A stretch of 64,000 nt of DNA from Polyangiales bacterium. Its GTDB lineage: Bacteria > Myxococcota_A > Polyangia > Polyangiales > Polyangiaceae. Below are positions 44,412 through 53,469 of the stretch, piece after piece (position 1 is the first letter of the stretch; the number at the start of each line of letters is the position of its first letter). The translations under genes and the position numbers were made by a program. The notes below the pieces were generated by a model. That model did not search any database. It was given only the letters and a program-made list of their open reading frames with translations, and was not told where the DNA came from. The DNA is taken from contig JBBRLQ010000024.1 of the NCBI GenBank assembly GCA_038231275.1, positions 59,244-123,243 of the forward strand, in the 5' to 3' direction.

Positions 44412-44470
44412 TCGGAGTCGGAGTCGGAGTCGGAGTCGGAGTCGGAGTCGGAGTCGGAGTCGGAGTCGGA
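44412..44470. repeat. (TCGGAG)x~10 perfect hexamer array
   Basis: Starts at the base after the rsmI TAA. Confidence 0.97.
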
Positions 44471-44507
44471 AAGAGAGCGCGCGCTTCGTGCGCTACGCTT
44501 CCCTCGC

Positions 44508-45704
44508 ATGGCCAAGGAGCGAGAGATCGATGTCGCGTTCGCGCTCGAGGGGGTCTCGTGCGTCGTCGGCGTCCACGCGCTCAGGGGCGTCCGCGACGGG
44601 GATGCGTACGATTTCGCCGTAGAGATTCGCCCGCGGACCGGGCTGACCATCGCAGAGGCGCACTACCGGCTTCTGCTCGTCCTCTCGCAGGCGGAGTGCG
44701 GCCGCGTCTTGCTGGTCGATGCGGACGCCCTTGCGCCGATGCCGATGCGCCAGGCCGAGCGCATTCTTCTCACGGCTTCCCAGCGCGACGCGGCAGCAGC
44801 GCGCGCTTTGGGGCGCGTCGAGGGGATCGCACGGCGGTACGAGCGAGAAGAGGCCGACGCGGCAAAATATCGCGATAGCGCGGCGGCTATCCCGTTGCTC
44901 GCGTTCGACCCGAGCGACGTGAGCCACGTCTTCCGTCTCGCGTTCGAGATCTCGTTCGCGCTCGAAGAGCTCCGTGCCGTCCGCGGTGTATTCGTCGCCG
45001 AAGAGCGACGCCGAGGGCGCACGCAACGCCTCGATGTCTTCGTTGAGCTGCCCATGAACGCGAACGCCGTCTTCGCGGCCCACAAGCGCCTCGTCGAGCG
45101 ATGCGGCTGGGCAGCAGGCCGGGTGCTCTACGGCGACGGCGATATGAGGATGCGCTACCTCGCGCATCGCGTGCGCCAGACCACGTTCGAGCGGATTCAC
45201 GCGCGGGACCGCGCGGAGCGGCGCCTCGCCGAGCCGGTCGTCCGGGACTGGGCGCCGCTCGCACGGGAAGTCGAACGAGGCTTCGCGAACGGCCCACCGT
45301 TGCGCCCGGTGGCGCTGAGGATTGAAGGAGACCACGCGTGCCCGGCCGCTGAGCCAGCCGCCGTACCCCGCGTGCTGCTCGTCCACGAGGACCGCAACTC
45401 TGTCGCCTCGCTCGCTGCGCTCGTTGGGCAGATCGACCTTCAGCAAGCCCGAGACGGATGGGAGGCCATCGATCTCGTCGGCGCGACGAAGTTCGATCTC
45501 GTCATCTCTGGCCTCCGCGTCGGGAGCATGCGCGGAATGCAGATTTACCGGACCGCCGTCGTCGCCGATCCGGAGCTCGCGGAGCGCTTTTTCTTCCTCA
45601 CTAGCGCCGAGACCAAGGACGCCGCGCCGCCATCCACGGCGCTGGCGCGGGTGCTGACGTCTCCGCTCGATCCGGAGGAAGTGCGACGCCTCCTCGGTCT
45701 CTAG
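44508..45704 (+). CDS. Hypothetical protein with C-terminal degenerate receiver domain
   Basis: RVLLVHED...ARDGWEAI...FDLVISGL...MRGMQIY...FFFLTS...VLTSP. Confidence 0.65.
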   Translation: MAKEREIDVAFALEGVSCVVGVHALRGVRDGDAYDFAVEIRPRTGLTIAEAHYRLLLVLSQAECGRVLLVDADALAPMPMRQAERILLTASQRDAAAARALGRVEGIARRYEREEADAAKYRDSAAAIPLLAFDPSDVSHVFRLAFEISFALEELRAVRGVFVAEERRRGRTQRLDVFVELPMNANAVFAAHKRLVERCGWAAGRVLYGDGDMRMRYLAHRVRQTTFERIHARDRAERRLAEPVVRDWAPLAREVERGFANGPPLRPVALRIEGDHACPAAEPAAVPRVLLVHEDRNSVASLAALVGQIDLQQARDGWEAIDLVGATKFDLVISGLRVGSMRGMQIYRTAVVADPELAERFFFLTSAETKDAAPPSTALARVLTSPLDPEEVRRLLGL

Positions 45705-45707
45705 CGC

Positions 45708-45734
45708 TCCGACGCCGACGCCGACGCCGACGCC
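45708..45734. repeat. (T/G)CCGAC x4.5 hexamer array
   Basis: 3 nt after the TAG of the upstream gene. Confidence 0.9.
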
Positions 45735-45765
45735 ATGGCCGCGTCATCGGTGATAGCGTCGCACA

Positions 45766-46902
45766 ATGAGAAGATCTGCCTTGCTGGTTCCCTTCGTCGC
45801 GGGCGCGATGCTCGCTGCGTCCGATGCGTCGGCCACTGGTCATGTCGCCGGGGGAGCGAATCCGCGGCTCTTTCACGCGCACGTGCCGGACGTTGCGCCG
45901 CCGCCCCCGATGCCGACCAAGGATCCGAAGGGTAACCCGCTGCCGAACGTCGGGCCGCCGCCGACGGGGACGTCGAAGATGCCGCTCGTCATCTTGCTGC
46001 ACGGCCTCGCCGTCGACGCGACGATGCAGGACATGTTCTTTCAGCTGCGGACGATCGCCGATCAGCGCCGCTTCGCGTTCGCGTACCTCGACGGCACGCG
46101 CAACGGACTGGGGCTCCAGTTCTGGAACGCCACCGACGGGTGTTGCCAGTTTCCCGCGAACCCAAACTTCGCGACGGCGTTCATGCACGGGATTCACGGG
46201 CTCCTCGGCGCGCTCACGGCGTCGGTCGGGGGGCCGCCGGTCGACGACGTCGGTTACATCGACTCGGTCATCGACGTGATGACCAAGACGTACCCCATCG
46301 ACGAAAAGCGCATCTTCGTCGTCGCCCACTCGAACGGCGGGTTCATGGCGCACCGGTTCGCGTGCGAGAACACGCGCGTCGCCGCGATCGCGACACTCTC
46401 GGGCGCGCAGTGGATGGACGCGTCGAGGTGCCCCGGGACCCACAAGGTATCGGTCCTGCACATCCACGACACGGCGGACGAGATCATTCCCTACGCGGGG
46501 GGCACGCCGCTGCTGTCGCCGCTCTTCTCGCCGGCGATGAGCATCGTGTACCCGAACATCTCGGTGCCGTCGGCGAAGGAGACCGTCGCGCGGTGGGCGA
46601 GGCGCGACGAGTGCAAGGGCGGCCTCACGATGGTCGGCGGTACGAAGGTCGATCTCGAGCAGCGCCTTCCGGGCCCCGACACGCTGATGGAGAAGTACGA
46701 CTGCCCGGCTCCCTACGGCGTCGAGCTGTGGACGATCGAGGGTGGGCCACCGAGGTCGCTGGAGACGCTCGACGGCACGAACTCGGCGCACATCCCGCGG
46801 TTTTACTACCACGGCATGCCGGGTTTCCATGAGCCGCCGGGGAACCAGCCGGCGTTCCCCGACCGCATCTACGACTGGCTCATCGCCCACCCGAAGCCGT
46901 GA
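45766..46902 (+). CDS. Secreted alpha/beta hydrolase (LpqC / PHB-depolymerase-like esterase)
   Basis: Signal peptide, PLVILLHG, WNATDGCC, VDDVGYI, nucleophile elbow AHSNGG, HIHDTAD. Confidence 0.85.
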   Translation: MRRSALLVPFVAGAMLAASDASATGHVAGGANPRLFHAHVPDVAPPPPMPTKDPKGNPLPNVGPPPTGTSKMPLVILLHGLAVDATMQDMFFQLRTIADQRRFAFAYLDGTRNGLGLQFWNATDGCCQFPANPNFATAFMHGIHGLLGALTASVGGPPVDDVGYIDSVIDVMTKTYPIDEKRIFVVAHSNGGFMAHRFACENTRVAAIATLSGAQWMDASRCPGTHKVSVLHIHDTADEIIPYAGGTPLLSPLFSPAMSIVYPNISVPSAKETVARWARRDECKGGLTMVGGTKVDLEQRLPGPDTLMEKYDCPAPYGVELWTIEGGPPRSLETLDGTNSAHIPRFYYHGMPGFHEPPGNQPAFPDRIYDWLIAHPKP

Positions 46903-46910
46903 GGACGACC

Positions 46911-48413
46911 ATGAACACGCCGAGACTTCTCGTCCTCGCCACGCCGACGCTGCTCCTCGCCGCGCTCGCCGCCACGCATTCGGGGCGCGCCGACGCGCTC
47001 ATCAACGGGCGGCCCACGCGCGCCGACGGCTCCGGGTTCGTGCACTTGCACGGCGCGATGTCGACGTGCAGCGGGACGCTCATCGCGCCGGACACGATTC
47101 TCACCAGCAAGGGGTGCTTCACCGCCGCCGAGGTCATCCACGCCGATCTCGCGGGGTGGTTCATGGGCGCGGATGACTCGGACAAAAACGCGCTTCGTGA
47201 GATCCATCCGCACCCGACGCTCGACGCAGCGCTCGTGCGGCTTACGCACCCGATCGTGAGCACGCTCTTCGATCTCTACCCCTTCGAGGCATCGCAGCTC
47301 GTCGGCGCGCGAATGACCTGCAATGGCTACGGCACCATGGGTGGTCCGCAGATCACCTACGGCGGACAGCTGTCGAGCGGCGAGTTCAACGTGCCGTCCG
47401 TCACGCCGACCACGCTCAACGTCGTGAGCCGCGTCCTCTTTGCCGGATACGATCAAGGCGGCGGCTGCGTCGTCGCGCACCAGGGGCGCTCTTTTCTGGC
47501 CGGCGTCATGAGCGTCGCCAACGCCAACCCCACGAGCGTGACCGCGCTGCGCCGCTTCGTCTCGTCGTTCGCGACGTGGCACGAGCTCGAGGCCGGCGAC
47601 ACCGACGTCTGCATCCGTGCGCCGCGATCGGCACCCGCCAACGCGACGACGCCGCTCGAGCTCGCCGCGTGCGACGGCAACCCCAGCGAGGGCTGGGAGG
47701 TGAAGACCGTCGACAACGGCAGCGTGGAGATCCGCGCCAAGGCGAGCAACCTCTGCCTCACCGCGGTCGGCGACGCGCTCGTTCAGGCAATGTGCGGAGG
47801 TGAGATCACCGAGGCGCACCCGGGCAAGCTCCCCAAGCAGCGCAAGCCCGAGCAGATGTGGGCGGTGTCGACCGCCACCGACGGCTTCGTCGAGCTGATG
47901 AGCATCGCGCGATCGGGTCGGTGCATCGAGGCGGTCGGCGTGGGCAAGGGCAATAACGGCAAGCTGACCCTCTCGCCGTGCAATCTCGCGACGCGCAGCC
48001 AGCACCTGCGCATCAACGTGACGCTGCTCGACGAGCGCGATCATCGCCTCGGGGGCGTGCCAGGATGCGCGTCGGCGAAGGAGCTGCGAAGCGCCGGCCC
48101 GATCGGCACCGACGCGTGCAGCGGCAAGGACAACCAGCTCTGGCGCCTCGAGCGCGCGGAACGCCCGTATTTTCTCGTACATTCGCGAGAGGGGCGGTAC
48201 GGGCGCTGCATCTCGTCGAGCGGGAGCGCGCTGCAAGAAGCGGGTTGCATCGGGACGACCGACGCGCAGAAGTGGCGCCTCGAGTACCAGCCGGACGGAA
48301 ACTACTCGCTGCGCGGGAAGCAGACCGGGCACTGCGCCCTCGCGACAGGGGGCGCGCTGGAGCAGATGGCGTGCGACTCGGCGCAGCCGAAGCAGCACTG
48401 GGCGATGGAGTAA
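46911..48413 (+). CDS. Secreted trypsin-like (catalytically degenerate) domain plus two ricin-B lectin domains
   Basis: CSGTLIAP, DAALVRL; QxW-type repeats (QMW, QLW, QKW, QHW) with C-L/I-x patterns. Confidence 0.75.
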   Translation: MNTPRLLVLATPTLLLAALAATHSGRADALINGRPTRADGSGFVHLHGAMSTCSGTLIAPDTILTSKGCFTAAEVIHADLAGWFMGADDSDKNALREIHPHPTLDAALVRLTHPIVSTLFDLYPFEASQLVGARMTCNGYGTMGGPQITYGGQLSSGEFNVPSVTPTTLNVVSRVLFAGYDQGGGCVVAHQGRSFLAGVMSVANANPTSVTALRRFVSSFATWHELEAGDTDVCIRAPRSAPANATTPLELAACDGNPSEGWEVKTVDNGSVEIRAKASNLCLTAVGDALVQAMCGGEITEAHPGKLPKQRKPEQMWAVSTATDGFVELMSIARSGRCIEAVGVGKGNNGKLTLSPCNLATRSQHLRINVTLLDERDHRLGGVPGCASAKELRSAGPIGTDACSGKDNQLWRLERAERPYFLVHSREGRYGRCISSSGSALQEAGCIGTTDAQKWRLEYQPDGNYSLRGKQTGHCALATGGALEQMACDSAQPKQHWAME

Positions 48414-48423
48414 CGACGGTTGG

Positions 48424-48477
48424 GCCGACGCCGACGCCGACGCCGACTCCGACGCCGACTCCGACTCCGACTCCGAC
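48424..48477. repeat. (G/T)CCGAC x9 hexamer array
   Basis: 10 nt after the TAA of the upstream gene. Confidence 0.95.
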
Positions 48478-48551
48478 TTGCGCGTCGGGTCTCGGCGCCT
48501 CATGCTCTCTCCATGAACTTCACCGAGCGCATCTGACGCCGGCCCTCTCTC

Positions 48552-49805
48552 TTGCCGCTCACGCTGGTCACGCTCGCCGACGAGCTGTGGAGCGGCGTGG
48601 CGGTGTGCGGCGCGCCGTCGGTGGAGGACGAGCTCGGGCTGTCGCACCGGGCGTACGTGACGTTCGTGTTCGCCGTGCCGCTGGTCGTCGCGGCCGTCCT
48701 CGAGGGCGGCATCGCGTTGCTCTCGGATTTGCGCGGGCGTGCGCGTGTTCTGGTGCTCGGACAGGCGGCGCTCGCGGCGTCGCTGCTGCTGACGGCGTGC
48801 GCTCGAGGGCCATGGGGCCTCACGATCGGCCTCGCGCTCGCAGGGACGTCCAGCGGCGTCGCGTGCGGTGCAGGGCAGGCGCTCCTGCTCCTTTGCTTCG
48901 GCGACGGTGATGACGCGCGCGATCGCGCGATGGTGCGCTGGACGCTCTACGGCGCAATCGGTGACGTGCTGGCACCGCTCGTCACGGCGGGCGCGGTCGC
49001 GATGGGGTTCTCGTACCGCGCGGCGATGGCGGCGGTCGCGGCGGGAGTTGCCGTCCAGTGCGCGGCGAGCGCGCGACGGCTCCTCCGCACGGAGCCTCCG
49101 CGCGGGGACGCGGACGCGCCGGACTGCGACGCGCCGGCGCCTCTGCGTAGCGCGCTCGCGGCCGCCATCCGTCGTCCCGCGCTGTGGGCGTGGCTCTTCG
49201 CGGCGGCGTCGTGCACGCTCCTCGACGAAGTGATCGTCGCGCTGGCCGCGCTGCGCCTCGTGCGCGATCAAGGTGCCACCGGCGCGCTCGCGGCGGCGTC
49301 GGCCGTGGCGTTCTCGGGGGGCGCGGTCGTCGGTGCGGCGCTCACCGATCGTGCCGTCGCGCGGTGGTCGTCGAGGCGCGTGCTCGTCGCGAGCGCCGTG
49401 GCGTGTGCTGCGGCGCTGGGCGTCTTCGTCGCGTCGACGGCGCCGGTCGCTTCGTGCGCCGCCTTGCTGCTCGTGGGCATCACGTGCGCGCCGCATCACG
49501 CGCTAGCGCTGTCGCGCGCGTACGGTGAGCTTCCCGGCAAGCCGGGAACGGTGCAGGCGATTGGGCAGATTTTCGTCGTGATGGATGTCGCGATTCCCCT
49601 TGCGATCGGAGTCGTGGCGGATCGCTTTGGGCTGGGCGTCGCGGTCGCGTGCCTGCTCGTGCAGCCCGCGGTGATCCTCGCGTGCGCGGTGCCGGGGGGC
49701 GCGGACGCCGACGCCGATTCCGATTCCGACTCCGACGCCGATTCCGATTCCGACGCCGACTCCGACGCCGACTCCGACGCCGACTCCGACTCCGACTCCG
49801 GGTGA
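48552..49805 (+). CDS. MFS transporter with repeat-derived Asp/Ser/Ala tail
   Basis: About 12 TM helices, [11 protein letters not shown] and ADRFG MFS motifs; start uncertain. Confidence 0.8.
49701..49800. repeat. (G/T)CCGA(C/T) x~16 hexamer array inside the MFS 3' end
   Basis: Read directly; left flank of the four-helix-bundle cassette. Confidence 0.95.
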
Positions 49806-49828
49806 CGGGCCTCTCTCGGGTCTGGGCG

Positions 49829-49920
49829 ATTTTGCCGGCGTGCTCGGCGGTGTCAAGGCCGAGCCGGCTGCGCCGGTGCCGCCTGCGGCGGCAGCCTTGA
49901 CACCGCCTGCGCTCGCCGGC
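49829..49920. promoter_or_regulatory. Y-shaped fold-back element, copy 1 (putative ssDNA promoter)
   Basis: 14-bp perfect stem 49846-49859/49894-49907, two triloop hairpins, outer stem 49834-49840/49914-49920; minus-strand TTGACA-N16-CAAAAT. Structure is seen, function is inferred. Confidence 0.7.
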
Positions 49921-49963
49921 TTCGGGGCGGCGCCCCGAGAGAAGGGGGCGCGAGGAGGTTTCG

Positions 49964-50278
49964 ATGTTGAGAGTTTATGAAGAGGTGCTCGAGGTGGTGG
50001 GGATGCTCAGGGAGGTGCTCGGTGAGATCGAGAAGAGGGATGTCGATCTGGGTCGGCAGCTGCGGCGCGCCGCGGCCAGTGTGGCGCTGAACATTGCCGA
50101 GGCGAATGGGAGTCGCGGGAGAAATCGCGGGTTGCGGTTCAGCACGGCGCTGGGCTCGATGCGCGAGACACTCGCATGTCTTCAGGTCGGCGCCGCGTTC
50201 GGGTACGTGGAGATGGACGGTGAGCTGCCGCAGAGGATCGACCGCATCTGCGCGGCGCTCTACTCGCTGGCGAGATGA
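49964..50278 (+). CDS. Four-helix-bundle protein (TIGR02436 / 23S-IVP / Avd-like fold), copy 1
   Basis: [21 protein letters not shown]....[12 protein letters not shown] signature; GAGGAGG Shine-Dalgarno. Confidence 0.9.
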
Positions 50279-50281
50279 GGT

Positions 50282-50322
50282 TCGCCGAGGGCGCCGCGGA
50301 AAACGGCGCCCTCGGCGAGTTT
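50282..50322. terminator. 15-bp perfect hairpin between the convergent genes, probable intrinsic terminator
   Basis: TCGCCGAGGGCGCCG-CGGAAAA-CGGCGCCCTCGGCGA followed by GTTTT. Confidence 0.8.
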
Positions 50323-50640
50323 TCACCGGGACAGGCGGTAGAGAGAGCCGCAGATACCGTCCATTTTGCGTGCAGTCTGCATGCACACCGCCTCCAGGTG
50401 ACCCATCGCAACCGCGACGTCCAAGCAGGCTTGCGTCTCCCGCATCGACCCCAGCGCCGTGCTGAACCGCACCGCGCCATTCCTCCCCCGACTCCCCTGC
50501 GCCTCCGCGACATTCAACGCGACGCTACTCACCGCCCGCCGCATCTGCCGCGCCAAGTCACTATCCCGCTTCTCGATCACCCCCATCGCGTCCTTCAACT
50601 CCCGAATCACCTCCAACACCTCTTCATAAACTCTGAGCAT
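50323..50640 (-). CDS. Four-helix-bundle protein (TIGR02436 / 23S-IVP / Avd-like fold), copy 2
   Basis: [11 protein letters not shown] start identical to copy 1; DLARQMRRAVSSVALNVAEA...[19 protein letters not shown] Shine-Dalgarno. Confidence 0.9.
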   Translation of the reverse strand: MLRVYEEVLEVIRELKDAMGVIEKRDSDLARQMRRAVSSVALNVAEAQGSRGRNGAVRFSTALGSMRETQACLDVAVAMGHLEAVCMQTARKMDGICGSLYRLSR

Positions 50641-50676
50641 CCCAGCCTCCTTCTCCCCTCTCGGGGGCCCCCCTCC

Positions 50677-50766
50677 GCTCGCGAGCGCAGGCGGGGTCAA
50701 GGCTGCCCCGCAGGGGCACCGGCGAAGCCGGCTCGGCCTTGACGCCGCCGAGCACGCGAGCAAGCT
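50677..50766. promoter_or_regulatory. Y-shaped fold-back element, copy 2 (putative ssDNA promoter)
   Basis: Stem 50690-50703/50736-50749 (one mismatch), hairpins TGCCCC-GCA-GGGGCA and CCGGC-GAA-GCCGG, outer stem 50677-50683/50755-50761; plus-strand TTGACG-N16-CAAGCT. Confidence 0.7.
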
Positions 50767-50788
50767 AGCCCCCTCGAGAGAGGAGCAC

Positions 50789-50918
<130 letters not shown>

Positions 50919-50975
50919 TTCCCCCCCGCTCGTCCCCTCGTGCGCGCCGCCCTGGGAAATGCGAGCCTCCCCCTC

Positions 50976-52301
50976 GTGACCGCACGATCCGCCTCGGTTC
51001 TCACCGTCTTCGCGCTCCTCGCGGCGTGCAGCAAAACAGAGCCTCCCGCGCCGGGCCTCCTCGAGGCCGCCCCTACCGTCGCCGCGTCCACCTCTCCTGT
51101 CGACGCAGCGCCGCCCGGAATCGGCGAAGGTGGCGGCACGCTCGAAGCGGAGGGCGCGACGCTGACGATCCCCGAAGGCGCCCTCAGGGGCGCGCGCGTC
51201 TTCACGATCGCGTCCGTGAAAGGTGACGCGCTGGTCGGTTGGCCACGCGGCACCGAGCTCGGCTTCGCCTTCACGCCGGCGGGCGAGCGCTTTCGTGTGC
51301 CGGTGACGATCGCGCTACCGCACCCCGCCAGCCCCGACGGCGGCGGGGGCGGCGGCGAGATCGTCTGCGAGAACCGGCCTGGCGATCGCACCCAGACCCA
51401 GTTCGACGGCACCTTCGACGGCAAGCCGCTGCCCGTCCACGTCAACGTCCTGCCGCGCCGCTGCGCCGTCTATACCGCCGAGCACGCCAAGGCGCTCCAG
51501 GCCGCGCGCGCGAAGGAAGCGGCGATGGTCGACAAGGGGAACACGTCGTACCACTGGGAGATCAAGGGCCAGGTTTGCGATCCACACGATCTGGTACGCC
51601 CCAACGCTGGGCGCGATCTCCGCGAGCCGCCCGGCCTCGGCGGATGCCCGGCCGGGATGGCGCGGATCCCCGGCAGGCCGAGCGCGTGCGTCGACCGCTG
51701 GGAGCCGCACCTCGTCGAGGTGCTGGACGACGGCACGGAGCACACGTGGACGCCGTACTTCAACCCTGCGGGCCTCAAGGTCCGGGCGAAGAGCTCGCCC
51801 GGCGCAGTGCCGCAGGCGTACATCTCACAGGTGCAAGCCGGCGCGGCGTGCGCGGCGTCGGGCAAGCGCCTCTGCAAAGACGACGAGTGGGTGCTCGCGT
51901 GCAAGGGCAGCAAACACACCCAATTTCCCTACGGAAACGAGGAAAAGCGGGGAACATGCAACGATCAACGGGACCCTCACCCGGCGATGCAGTACCTCGA
52001 ATCGCACGATCTCTCAGTGTTCACGAAGCTCGAGCACCCGTGCATCAACCAGGTGCCCGACTCGCTACTGCCAGGCGGCGCGAAGGCCGCGTGCGCGACG
52101 CCCGAGGGCGTCTACGACATCGTCGGCAACCTGCACGAGTGGACGGCCGACCCGAGCGGACACTTCCGCGGCGGGTACTACGTCGACACGTGGCTCAACG
52201 GTCACGGGTGCGACTACGTCACGACCGCGCACGAGGCGCGGTACTGGGACTACTCCACCGGCTTCCGCTGCTGCGCAGACGCGCCCGCGCGCGACCAGTA
52301 G
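50976..52301 (+). CDS. Lipoprotein with C-terminal FGE-sulfatase/SUMF1 domain
   Basis: Lipobox AAC; CPAGMA, GKRLC...EW..AC, FPYG, GVYDIVGNLHEW, FRGG, GFRCC. Confidence 0.85.
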   Translation: MTARSASVLTVFALLAACSKTEPPAPGLLEAAPTVAASTSPVDAAPPGIGEGGGTLEAEGATLTIPEGALRGARVFTIASVKGDALVGWPRGTELGFAFTPAGERFRVPVTIALPHPASPDGGGGGGEIVCENRPGDRTQTQFDGTFDGKPLPVHVNVLPRRCAVYTAEHAKALQAARAKEAAMVDKGNTSYHWEIKGQVCDPHDLVRPNAGRDLREPPGLGGCPAGMARIPGRPSACVDRWEPHLVEVLDDGTEHTWTPYFNPAGLKVRAKSSPGAVPQAYISQVQAGAACAASGKRLCKDDEWVLACKGSKHTQFPYGNEEKRGTCNDQRDPHPAMQYLESHDLSVFTKLEHPCINQVPDSLLPGGAKAACATPEGVYDIVGNLHEWTADPSGHFRGGYYVDTWLNGHGCDYVTTAHEARYWDYSTGFRCCADAPARDQ

Positions 52302-52335
52302 AGTGAGAGCGGGCTAGGCGAGGGCTAGGCGCTGT

Positions 52336-53469
52336 TCAGACGCCGCCGCTCGCGCCGGCCTTCGCGCTGATGCTCGCGCTCGCCTGAACACTGACTCGCA
52401 GCGACGCTTGCGCGGAGATCGTCGCGTTCGCGGCCGCCGCGATGCACGCGCCGGCGTGGGCCGTCAGCTGACCGAGCGCGCTCGGCAGCTCGCTGCCCGA
52501 CTGGACGAGAACCTGCACGTCGCCGGCGATGCGGCGGCCGTACGCGATCTCGGCGGTGACGAGGACGGGGAGGTTCGCTTGCAGCGTGGCGATGAGCTTG
52601 CCCATCTCGCCGGTATTCACCGTCGCGTGGACGGCGACGCGCGCCTCGGTGCACCGCGCGGTGAGCTCCGCGTGCGCTTTGCAGCTCCCGGCGCAGTGGG
52701 CGTCGGCGCTCGGCGCCTTCACGGCGACGTCGCACTTGGGCTCCTTGAAGTCGACCGTGCACGCGCCGTGGCAATCGGCAGTGCACGTCCCCTTGCACGT
52801 TCCGTTGCATTGGCCCGCACACTGGCCGGCACCCGCGGCGCTGCCCGCCGCCGCATGCGCTTGGCCCGCGCACTGCCCCTGGCACTCGCCGTTGCACGTC
52901 CCGGCGCACTGGCCGGAGCACGTCCCCTCGCATCGTCCATAGAGGTGCCCGGGCTCGCAGTGCGCCTTCACGTAGCCGGGGTCGACGTTCACGTTGCATG
53001 CGCCCTTGCATGCTGCTTCAGCGTCGGCGTGGACCTCACATTGCGGCGGGGTGACGTCGGCCTTCACGGACGCAGAGACGCCCGTTCGGAGGATCGCATC
53101 CATTCGCGCGGACACCGCGTTGCACGCTGCAGCGACGCGTCCCTCGTTCTGTCGCGGCGTCATCTGCTCGGGAGGGACGCCCAGATCACGGCCCATGCGC
53201 TCGCACGCGACGCCGACCTCGGCCTCGGCCTTCGCGGCGATCGTCTGCAGGTCGCCGCTCGCGGTGACGAAGGCGCGGATCGTCGCGTTCGCGCGCGCGT
53301 CCGCCTCGAACGACGCGTTCATGGCGCCGCCTTGGAGCTCGGGACACGCGAAGTTGCCGAGCGCGCCCGCGGCGCCCGTCCCTCCGGCGCCGAACTCGCC
53401 TCCGCACGCGACGACGACCGCGCCAACGAACCCGCAGACCACGATGTACTTCGCCGACGTTCGGATCAT
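52336..53469 (-). CDS. Cys-rich (CxGxC repeat) lipoprotein
   Basis: GGAAGAGG Shine-Dalgarno, lipobox VAC, central CEGTCSGQCAGTCNGEC repeats. Confidence 0.8.
   Translation of the reverse strand: MIRTSAKYIVVCGFVGAVVVACGGEFGAGGTGAAGALGNFACPELQGGAMNASFEADARANATIRAFVTASGDLQTIAAKAEAEVGVACERMGRDLGVPPEQMTPRQNEGRVAAACNAVSARMDAILRTGVSASVKADVTPPQCEVHADAEAACKGACNVNVDPGYVKAHCEPGHLYGRCEGTCSGQCAGTCNGECQGQCAGQAHAAAGSAAGAGQCAGQCNGTCKGTCTADCHGACTVDFKEPKCDVAVKAPSADAHCAGSCKAHAELTARCTEARVAVHATVNTGEMGKLIATLQANLPVLVTAEIAYGRRIAGDVQVLVQSGSELPSALGQLTAHAGACIAAAANATISAQASLRVSVQASASISAKAGASGGV

Follow-up and report, generated by a model that had tools for sequence, protein, structure and literature searches.

The window analysed here, a stretch of 64,000 nt of Polyangiales DNA, contains a compact cassette of two convergent genes. 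Gene 1 (49964-50278, plus strand) encodes a four-helix-bundle protein of 104 aa and gene 2 (50640-50323, minus strand) one of 105 aa, both of the PF05635/TIGR02436 family and each preceded by a GGAGG Shine-Dalgarno sequence (49954..49958, plus strand, and 50646..50650, minus strand). The two proteins are 62% identical, close to the 60% estimated earlier by manual count. Between the 3′ ends of the genes lies a G+C-rich hairpin of 41 nt (50280..50320; z -4.9/-6.0), which receives no intrinsic terminator call and is probably a bidirectional terminator or stabiliser. Upstream of each gene, the template strand forms a long fold-back, at 49811..49944 (minus strand) for unit 1 and at 50653..50785 (plus strand) for unit 2. 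Arrays of the hexamer (NCCGAY)n flank the cassette on the left (49704..49800), where the reading frame of an MFS gene crosses the array and stops at 49805, and on the right (50787..50918). The initial annotation had described the locus as array, fold-back, Shine-Dalgarno sequence, gene 1 and hairpin, followed by the mirror image for gene 2. This layout is confirmed except for the arrays, which share one orientation as direct repeats on the plus strand and are not inverted with the units.

The surroundings are those of an ordinary chromosome with housekeeping genes. Among 48 window proteins (open reading frames chosen by a codon-bias filter), Pfam searches reveal no transposase, reverse transcriptase or relaxase. 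No Rfam family is found in the window, so no rRNA family is present and the cassette is not a 23S rRNA insertion; the absence of all four, asserted before, thus holds. The window also encodes, at 46899-48413, a trypsin-like protease that looks secreted and has ricin-type beta-trefoil lectin domains.

Both cassette proteins score above the HMM cut-off for PF05635/TIGR02436, as had been claimed. A predicted four-helix model (pLDDT 95.9) matches XCC0516 (2gsc) and BT_0352 (2rld) (TM 0.86), placing the window proteins by HMM and fold in one family with these structures and with the IVS-encoded S23p proteins. The same predicted model matches the DGR protein Avd with a TM of 0.73-0.75 at 11% identity, in agreement with the common fold proposed earlier; homology to Avd is noted in the accessible part of PMC10053308. 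Unlike rRNA IVS, the window genes do not lie inside an rRNA gene, have their own predicted fold-back promoter and occur as mobile single, tandem and convergent units. A Coxiella IVS copy has also been called selfish and is preceded by tandem heptamer repeats (PMC4990558, accessible part). Unlike Avd in its DGR setting, the window genes have no nearby reverse transcriptase, the sole RVT_1 match of the genome being on another contig. Among the repeats in 48500-52500, no TR/VR pair is found. Unlinked to the cassette, the genome also encodes a solitary reverse transcriptase (L224; G000:C2:151677-152312), in which a retron-like VTG motif is recognisable by eye.

Relative to the copies in a congener (G019), dN/dS is about 0.1-0.17, and by this comparison the four-helix genes are under purifying selection. 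Such selection would suit a host-beneficial sensor of single-stranded or damaged DNA, or a transfer-induced anti-defence module, roles suggested in the initial annotation and compatible with the promoter step discussed below; in plasmids, Frpo promoters do drive anti-defence genes (PMC11541004, accessible part). These roles nevertheless find no backing and are quite improbable, given that the window proteins match no PADLOC or PHROG family, no close plasmid-encoded protein homologue was found, the genes vary from 0 to >30 copies per genome at non-syntenic loci, and the context is one of chromosomal housekeeping genes. Four viral contigs match the element.

Homologues occur in 82 of 151 genomes of the host's family, with up to 32 per genome, and named loci with homologous units belong to Myxococcales and Polyangiaceae, in line with a myxobacterial host. 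The congener carries the cassette at C84 (77% identity over 1268 nt), a further copy at C85 that is cut by the contig end, and a single unit at C118. At the orthologous sites of the host genome (C6, C12 and C44) the cassette is absent, and C6 and C12 also lack the array. Judged from these occupied and empty sites, the cassette is mobile. The FGE orthologues in G019 and G098 have other neighbours and no adjoining cassette, and the window MFS query finds no match in either genome. A related strain in DNA runs X3/X4 has the same convergent junction, with 32 differences over 503 nt, and no credible excision joint was found in the contigs of four DNA runs.

The cassette resembles MITEs and REPINs in several respects: its terminal inverted repeats are long and imperfect, its copies are dispersed, empty sites exist and a transposase is lacking. 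It differs from them by its conserved protein gene and by the dispersal of single units. No target duplication or cognate transposase is recognised as for an IS or its MITE, the flanks being diverged and filled with arrays. With respect to REP/REPIN-RAYT systems, the host genome has only 2 copies of the element, and its single Y1_Tnp locus, which by eye resembles IS200/IS605 tnpA, lacks it. Br-REP1/2 were rejected as candidates, their sequences in the accessible part of PMC5082802 being different from the element.

A covariance model of the element recovers only the two window copies in the host genome (150 candidates scored) and finds matches in 21 of 61 genomes of the family. This search had been proposed in the initial annotation together with a record of the genes downstream: 21 of 28 covariance-model loci precede four-helix genes, one precedes a remnant, and two precede IS110 transposases on the fold side. 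The idea that the inverted pair itself is the functional unit finds no support. In a sample of 84 full-length genes (loci from part of 452 matches), 16 convergent pairs account for 32 genes, some of the apparent singles being cut by contig or locus ends; partners are 33-76% identical and never identical. Units often occur singly or as tandem direct copies; the basic unit is therefore a leader with its one gene. Pair partners group by lineage (a G000/G019 clade with support 97, G108, G045 and G013) in a quick tree with a weak backbone, in which 17 of 81 branches are starred. This grouping suggests that pairing arose several times from different paralogues, the pairs then moving as a unit. The host genome also holds another convergent four-helix pair, which belongs to a different subfamily (G000:C80:1-980; L001/L004) and whose Shine-Dalgarno sequences and ATG codons are buried in near-perfect mirror hairpins, and two single four-helix genes, L005 (G000:C145) and L006 (G000:C3), with a common third type of long fold-back leader. 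These remaining four TIGR02436 genes of the genome have other fold-backs, in which the geometry described below is absent (by eye).

Arrays of at least 4 NCCGAY units number 155 genome-wide, and besides the two that flank the cassette the window has several others. An array lies within 260 nt upstream of 48 of 70 elements, compared with 41 of 3689 ordinary 200-nt upstream regions (control from one genome), and the array sequence is genome-specific. The idea that the arrays are a product of the cassette was rejected because, in a small sample of 40 regions of 20 kb, genomes with more gene copies do not have denser arrays: the density is about 1 per 100 kb for G045 and G066 (14-19 gene copies) and 6-7 for G005 and G022 (0-1 copies). 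The proposal of a mobile unit linked to the arrays is thus upheld for mobility and for the strong enrichment of arrays beside elements, and finds no support as a genome-wide link. The block from rsmI to the FGE gene (44412-50918) is punctuated by arrays after stop codons, at 44412, 45709, 48425, 49704 and 50787, and is missing from G098, where rsmI directly adjoins the FGE gene (by inspection); it therefore looks like a series of stepwise acquisitions at arrays.

The leaders of genes 1 and 2 are 84% identical over 132 nt, and both fold into a three-way junction. The unit 1 fold-back consists, in order, of a downstream duplex, a bubble, a 23-pair stem carrying a conserved bulge and mismatches, and two hairpins with GCA triloops; unit 2 has GCA and GAA triloops. 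As DNA, the template strand folds with z scores of -7.1 (unit 1) and -4.1 (unit 2), equalled by 0 of 200 shuffles, versus -6.1 and -1.9 for the other strand; the coding-strand RNAs have z scores of -4.2 and -0.9. Two pairs in the outer stem are compensatory between the units, and one branch differs by a whole base pair, so that the compensatory conservation reported earlier is borne out. Rfam searches with the fold-back elements give nothing above chance.

Each fold-back contains a pair of promoter hexamers. On the minus strand, unit 1 has the -35 hexamer TTGACA (49851..49856), paired in the fold, and the -10 hexamer CAAAAT (49829..49834), unpaired from -11. They are separated by a 16-nt spacer, with 17 nt on the template arm. 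The corresponding hexamers of unit 2, TTGACG (50739..50744) and CAAGCT (50761..50766), lie on the plus strand. In duplex DNA the hexamers of both units point outward, away from the gene, and a promoter scanner run on the duplex detects this outward site with 10 of 12 matches. It finds 0 promoter-like sites on the sense strand before either window gene.

This geometry is conserved among relatives. A fixed-register finder that demanded stem pairing in part, and neither the -10 nor the bubble, located the element before 70 of 86 genes (62 distinct elements), the 16 missed being truncated, decayed or of other subfamilies. On the template strand, the 3′ arm has the consensus TTGACN, 16 nt, (C/G/T)ANNNT. 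Both A-11 and T-7 are kept in 59 of the 62 distinct four-helix elements; moving the register by any 1-6 positions leaves the pair in at most one element, and the mirror arm has it in none of the 62. The elements are related, so that element counts are not independent. Watson-Crick pairing is present in 54 of the 62 at -12, in none at -11 and in 3 at -7. A single additional base bulges from the partner arm, bringing it to 17 nt; this arm then runs on into the Shine-Dalgarno sequence and gene, with a predicted leader of 19-47 nt. Such a fork-junction geometry is what sigma70 recognises in the open complex.

An independent scan of species genomes, using a pattern without the -10 and the outer stem, yields at least 122 loci spanning Alphaproteobacteria, Acidobacteriota, Actinomycetes, Myxococcota, Planctomycetota, Chloroflexota and others. 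The strict pattern has a low sensitivity, with matches in 4 of 201 genomes of the phylum. Among the matches listed, the A...T pair occurs at the promoter register in 93 of 120 and on the mirror arm in 0-2 of 122, and pairing falls from 104 of 122 at -12 to 15 of 122 at -11; the 27 of 120 listed matches without the A...T pair count against a promoter reading. An alignment of 24 rows chosen by hand has double changes at 17 of 23 pairs, a value reached by 0 of 500 shuffles and far above that of slid controls. Past the bubble, the flanks re-pair better than with shuffled partners in 50 of 61 four-helix elements and in 98 of 122 scan matches listed. The single-strand-promoter geometry put forward in the initial annotation is thus recovered, by sequence comparison, as a fixed, strand-specific and covarying register across relatives. 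Two features count against it: drift of the -35 to TGGAC, TCGAC or TTGCC in about 40% of four-helix elements, and a -12 position that is mostly C or G.

The gene lies on the fold side in all 70 four-helix elements and in 11 of 11 four-helix cases among the scan matches listed. The upstream host gene is co-oriented for 29 and opposed for 22 of 51 assignable elements (62 elements, 11 without assignment), so read-through cannot serve many copies. With a loose pattern, a promoter-like site occurs in antisense in 59 of 62 relatives and in sense in 12 of 62. Spacers of 16 nt are native to the host genome, where TANNNT at 16/17/18 nt occurs at 15/13/17 sense sites. The outward duplex promoter may therefore be active, and this could itself explain the conservation of the -35 and -10. 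It would then serve as an insulator, opposing read-in transcription while a coding-strand RNA hairpin of the IS10/IS50 type silences whatever reads in, with the gene expressed rarely, by leakage. In IS10 and IS50, fold-back inhibition and pOUT combine an outward promoter with a hairpin at the start of a mobile gene; the window unit differs in lacking an inward duplex promoter and in a hairpin signature that is of DNA type and on the template strand. The scanner's outward site, the native spacer and the buried start sites of the C80 pair all fit an insulator, as does an RBS region that is more open in the bubble-initiated than in the read-in RNA in 30 of 62 elements, although this effect is small (medians 0.41 vs 0.49) and reversed in 10 of 62. 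We consider an insulator unlikely, since it leaves unexplained why pairing stops exactly at -12 and why GNA loops lie on the template strand, and it would give the copies in opposed orientation (22 of 51) no route to expression.

Some features of the fold-back extend beyond the promoter. The CGAGCAC/GCGCGCAG internal loop is invariant, and some branches contain it in several nested copies; recognition by RNA polymerase does not account for it, a point against the promoter reading. In seven loci (L016, L033, L035, L036, L083, L296 and L299) branches of up to 237 nt contain a nested GTGCTCG/CTGCGCGC internal-loop motif, which suggests repeated, putative protein-binding sites. In the accessible part of the transcription start site table of PMC4842269 (supplement 10), none of 29 CGAGCAC rows is the element, the strain possibly being without it, and the right-arm motifs are present only in part in the supplement rows. 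The supplement of PMC9320726 gives no sequence hits, and neither source bears on transcription of the element.

The loops and stems of the branches point to folded DNA as the conserved molecule. GNA triloops number 62 on the template versus 5 on the coding strand, of 107 in four-helix elements, and 80 versus 2 of 124 in the scan matches listed, with a genome background of about 4% per strand. C-GNA-G mini-hairpins are unusually stable in DNA. GNRA and UUCG RNA tetraloops are rare in the branches, and 37 of 52 TTC loops are unable to form the RNA cUUCGg loop. At variable stem positions, 640 of 682 cells are Watson-Crick and 4 of 682 are G-U, and in the scan matches listed wobbles favour the strand other than the coding RNA by 89 to 14. 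Loops and wobbles thus both speak against the idea of a structured coding-strand RNA leader to which the four-helix protein would bind in order to regulate its own gene. A leader of this type would accord with the coding-strand RNA z score of unit 1, with the binding of RNA by Avd in DGR complexes (from PDB titles), and with two conserved mismatches that become G-U wobbles when read on the coding strand (53 of 62 and 39 of 62). It is very unlikely all the same: the coding RNA of unit 2 reaches only z -0.9, the elements have no Rfam match, and 111 of 122 scan matches listed have no four-helix gene directly behind them (some flanks being only 300 nt).

The same module is also found inside insertion sequences and integrative elements. 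Among the 122 scan matches listed, 11 lie before a four-helix gene, 21 at IS110, 16 at ISNCY-like/IS3, 4 near IS21, 7 at other IS and 8 in Tn4371-like ICEs, and 55 have no label; the context labels come from clustering, some may be neighbours only, and many of the 55 have only 300-nt flanks. IS110, IS3, ISNCY-like, ISL3, IS21 and Tn4371-like elements thus have the module in common, and its presence in unrelated IS and ICE, read from their sequences, is a new observation. In the inspected IS110, IS3 and ISL3 members, apparent terminal sequences lie beyond the element, which is therefore internal (by eye). At some loci the fold side directly precedes IS110 and ISL3 transposases; at some IS21, ISL3 and ICE loci a gene is faced instead by the promoter in its duplex orientation, which counts against the single-strand reading. 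Since orientation to the transposase varies in IS, a primer or loading site fits better there than a dedicated gene promoter; before four-helix genes the orientation is always fold-side.

These contexts bear on another reading, in which the fold-back is mainly a signal recognised on folded single-stranded DNA by a mobilising enzyme acting in trans (a HUH transposase, recombinase or relaxase), its likeness to a promoter being secondary. The bulge and mismatches, invariant across phyla, recall extrahelical-base strand selection, and the module does occur near IS ends and in the traF-relaxase segment of Tn4371-like elements. Against it stand the conservation of A-11/T-7 and TTGAC at promoter spacing, the sharing of the module by unrelated transposase chemistries, the lack of any visible attC-type or REP-type core, and a number of only 2 copies in the host genome. 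An oriT has been mapped in the traF-relaxase segment of a betaproteobacterial Tn4371-like member (PMC11448139, accessible part), and the partial rows of the published oriT alignment contain neither GTCAAGG nor CCTTGAC; identity of the element with the Tn4371 oriT was rejected as a positional analogy only. On balance a mobilising-enzyme signal is an improbable primary function.

The reading we favour, and hold to be probable, is that the fold-back is a new sequence class of Frpo-like single-strand promoter/primer site, used by the host RNA polymerase on a pre-melted, folded template. The unit would be a fold-back, Shine-Dalgarno sequence, four-helix gene and hairpin, the window pair representing two diverged paralogues. 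In the folded template strand, the 3′ arm would supply the -35 and an unpaired -10 (A-11...T-7), with pairing ending at -12 and the other arm acting as template, while the downstream duplex closes the bubble to produce an open-complex mimic for a sigma70-type enzyme. Host RNA polymerase would start in the bubble and make the 19-47 nt leader plus the mRNA, and it would do so only while the strand is single-stranded (in replication gaps, incoming DNA or an excised intermediate) or extruded. Each gene thus seems to be switched on only when its template strand is folded into a ready-opened promoter. The same RNA may prime synthesis of the complementary strand, and a role as primer would account for the presence of the module in unrelated IS and ICE in either orientation to their genes. 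The Avd-fold protein might conceivably be a nucleic-acid chaperone that helps the unit to spread into short tandem arrays or together with them, and the pair might supply one promoter/primer site per strand. It is doubtful that an imperfect palindrome so rich in G+C would be extruded from duplex DNA, and no mobilising enzyme was found for the unit; both points count against the model.

The nearest known promoters are Frpo/ssi (ssp class 1-3) in the leading regions of F, ColIb-P9 and pESBL, where a template stem-loop rebuilds the -35 and -10 and can also supply a primer (PMC9849209, PMC12672017 and 10.64898/2026.01.09.698686, accessible parts). The window fold likewise rebuilds both hexamers before a gene, as seen from computed structure and covariation, and, with 0 sense sites and so no gene-facing duplex promoter for the window genes, is predicted to be silent as duplex. 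It differs from Frpo/ssi in having no blastn match to enterobacterial plasmids (judged by hit annotation): the plasmid hits are confined to records of Bradyrhizobium, Streptomyces and Sinorhizobium and a few more, and no hit carries an ssi annotation. It also differs in being chromosomal and multi-copy, with IS-borne kin, rather than located in a leading region, and in its sharp bubble from -11, G+C-rich composition and GNA-loop branches, known here from sequence. The element would work like Frpo/ssi, but it is not a member by sequence or location. Two further mimics are related in principle. 6S RNA is a stem-bubble-stem mimic of the open promoter, and the N4 hairpin promoters place GNA mini-hairpins on the template strand; here the mimic is DNA in cis, predicted to serve a host sigma70-type enzyme, and leads into a gene. 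No description of the element was found in the literature covered, which included few subscription papers and bioRxiv supplements, and a conserved fold-back promoter mimic on a mobile four-helix-bundle unit is apparently a class not described before.

In the literature covered, the leading regions of plasmids are the only places where single-strand promoters have been demonstrated. If the favoured reading is true, mobile elements would commonly sense the single-stranded state via host RNA polymerase. The fold-back is a directly testable substrate of 130 nt, offers a handle on the function of the very large TIGR02436 family, and has a possible synthetic use as a compact promoter gated by single-stranded DNA. 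A bolder and rather unlikely extension would make the unit the smallest of an undescribed mobile class that travels as single-stranded DNA, uses the pre-melted fold-back for both expression and priming, and encodes a protein that anneals or integrates it at short tandem arrays, the pair being a self-priming replicon and the module having been captured by IS and ICE. Were this so, IS110, IS3, ISNCY-like, ISL3, IS21 and Tn4371-like elements would couple expression or circle replication to the single-stranded state, and the TIGR02436 family would gain a function.

Several loci with the module have features of their own. The fold side leads straight into the transposase in six IS110 loci (L122, L123, L214, L197, L290 and L298) and one ISL3 locus (L120), and into an excisionase-like HTH gene (by eye) at L098; in IS110 this is the non-coding end, where a bridge RNA would be expected. 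In L162 and L217, past the element, a Shine-Dalgarno sequence and a mini-ORF of 2 codons lie on the fold side near the right end of IS110. In eight Tn4371-like ICE loci (L101, L119, L125, L134, L135, L154, L165 and L218) the element sits between traF/DUF736 and an SLT gene. Five loci sharing one accession prefix (L124, L142, L159, L170 and L188) are gene-free, stand-alone copies between housekeeping genes, resembling a dispersed repeat. Finally, in elements of the alphaproteobacterial type a GG...CCGAAC core located 20-120 nt beyond the right arm is surrounded by a direct repeat of at least 7 nt that covaries, which differs in sequence between elements and is identical within one (L097, L116, L130, L142, L155, L164, L182 and others). 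The repeat is present in 52 of 72 elements with a GAACA motif, a motif absent from the 62 four-helix leaders, and could be a primer-transfer or recombination signal.
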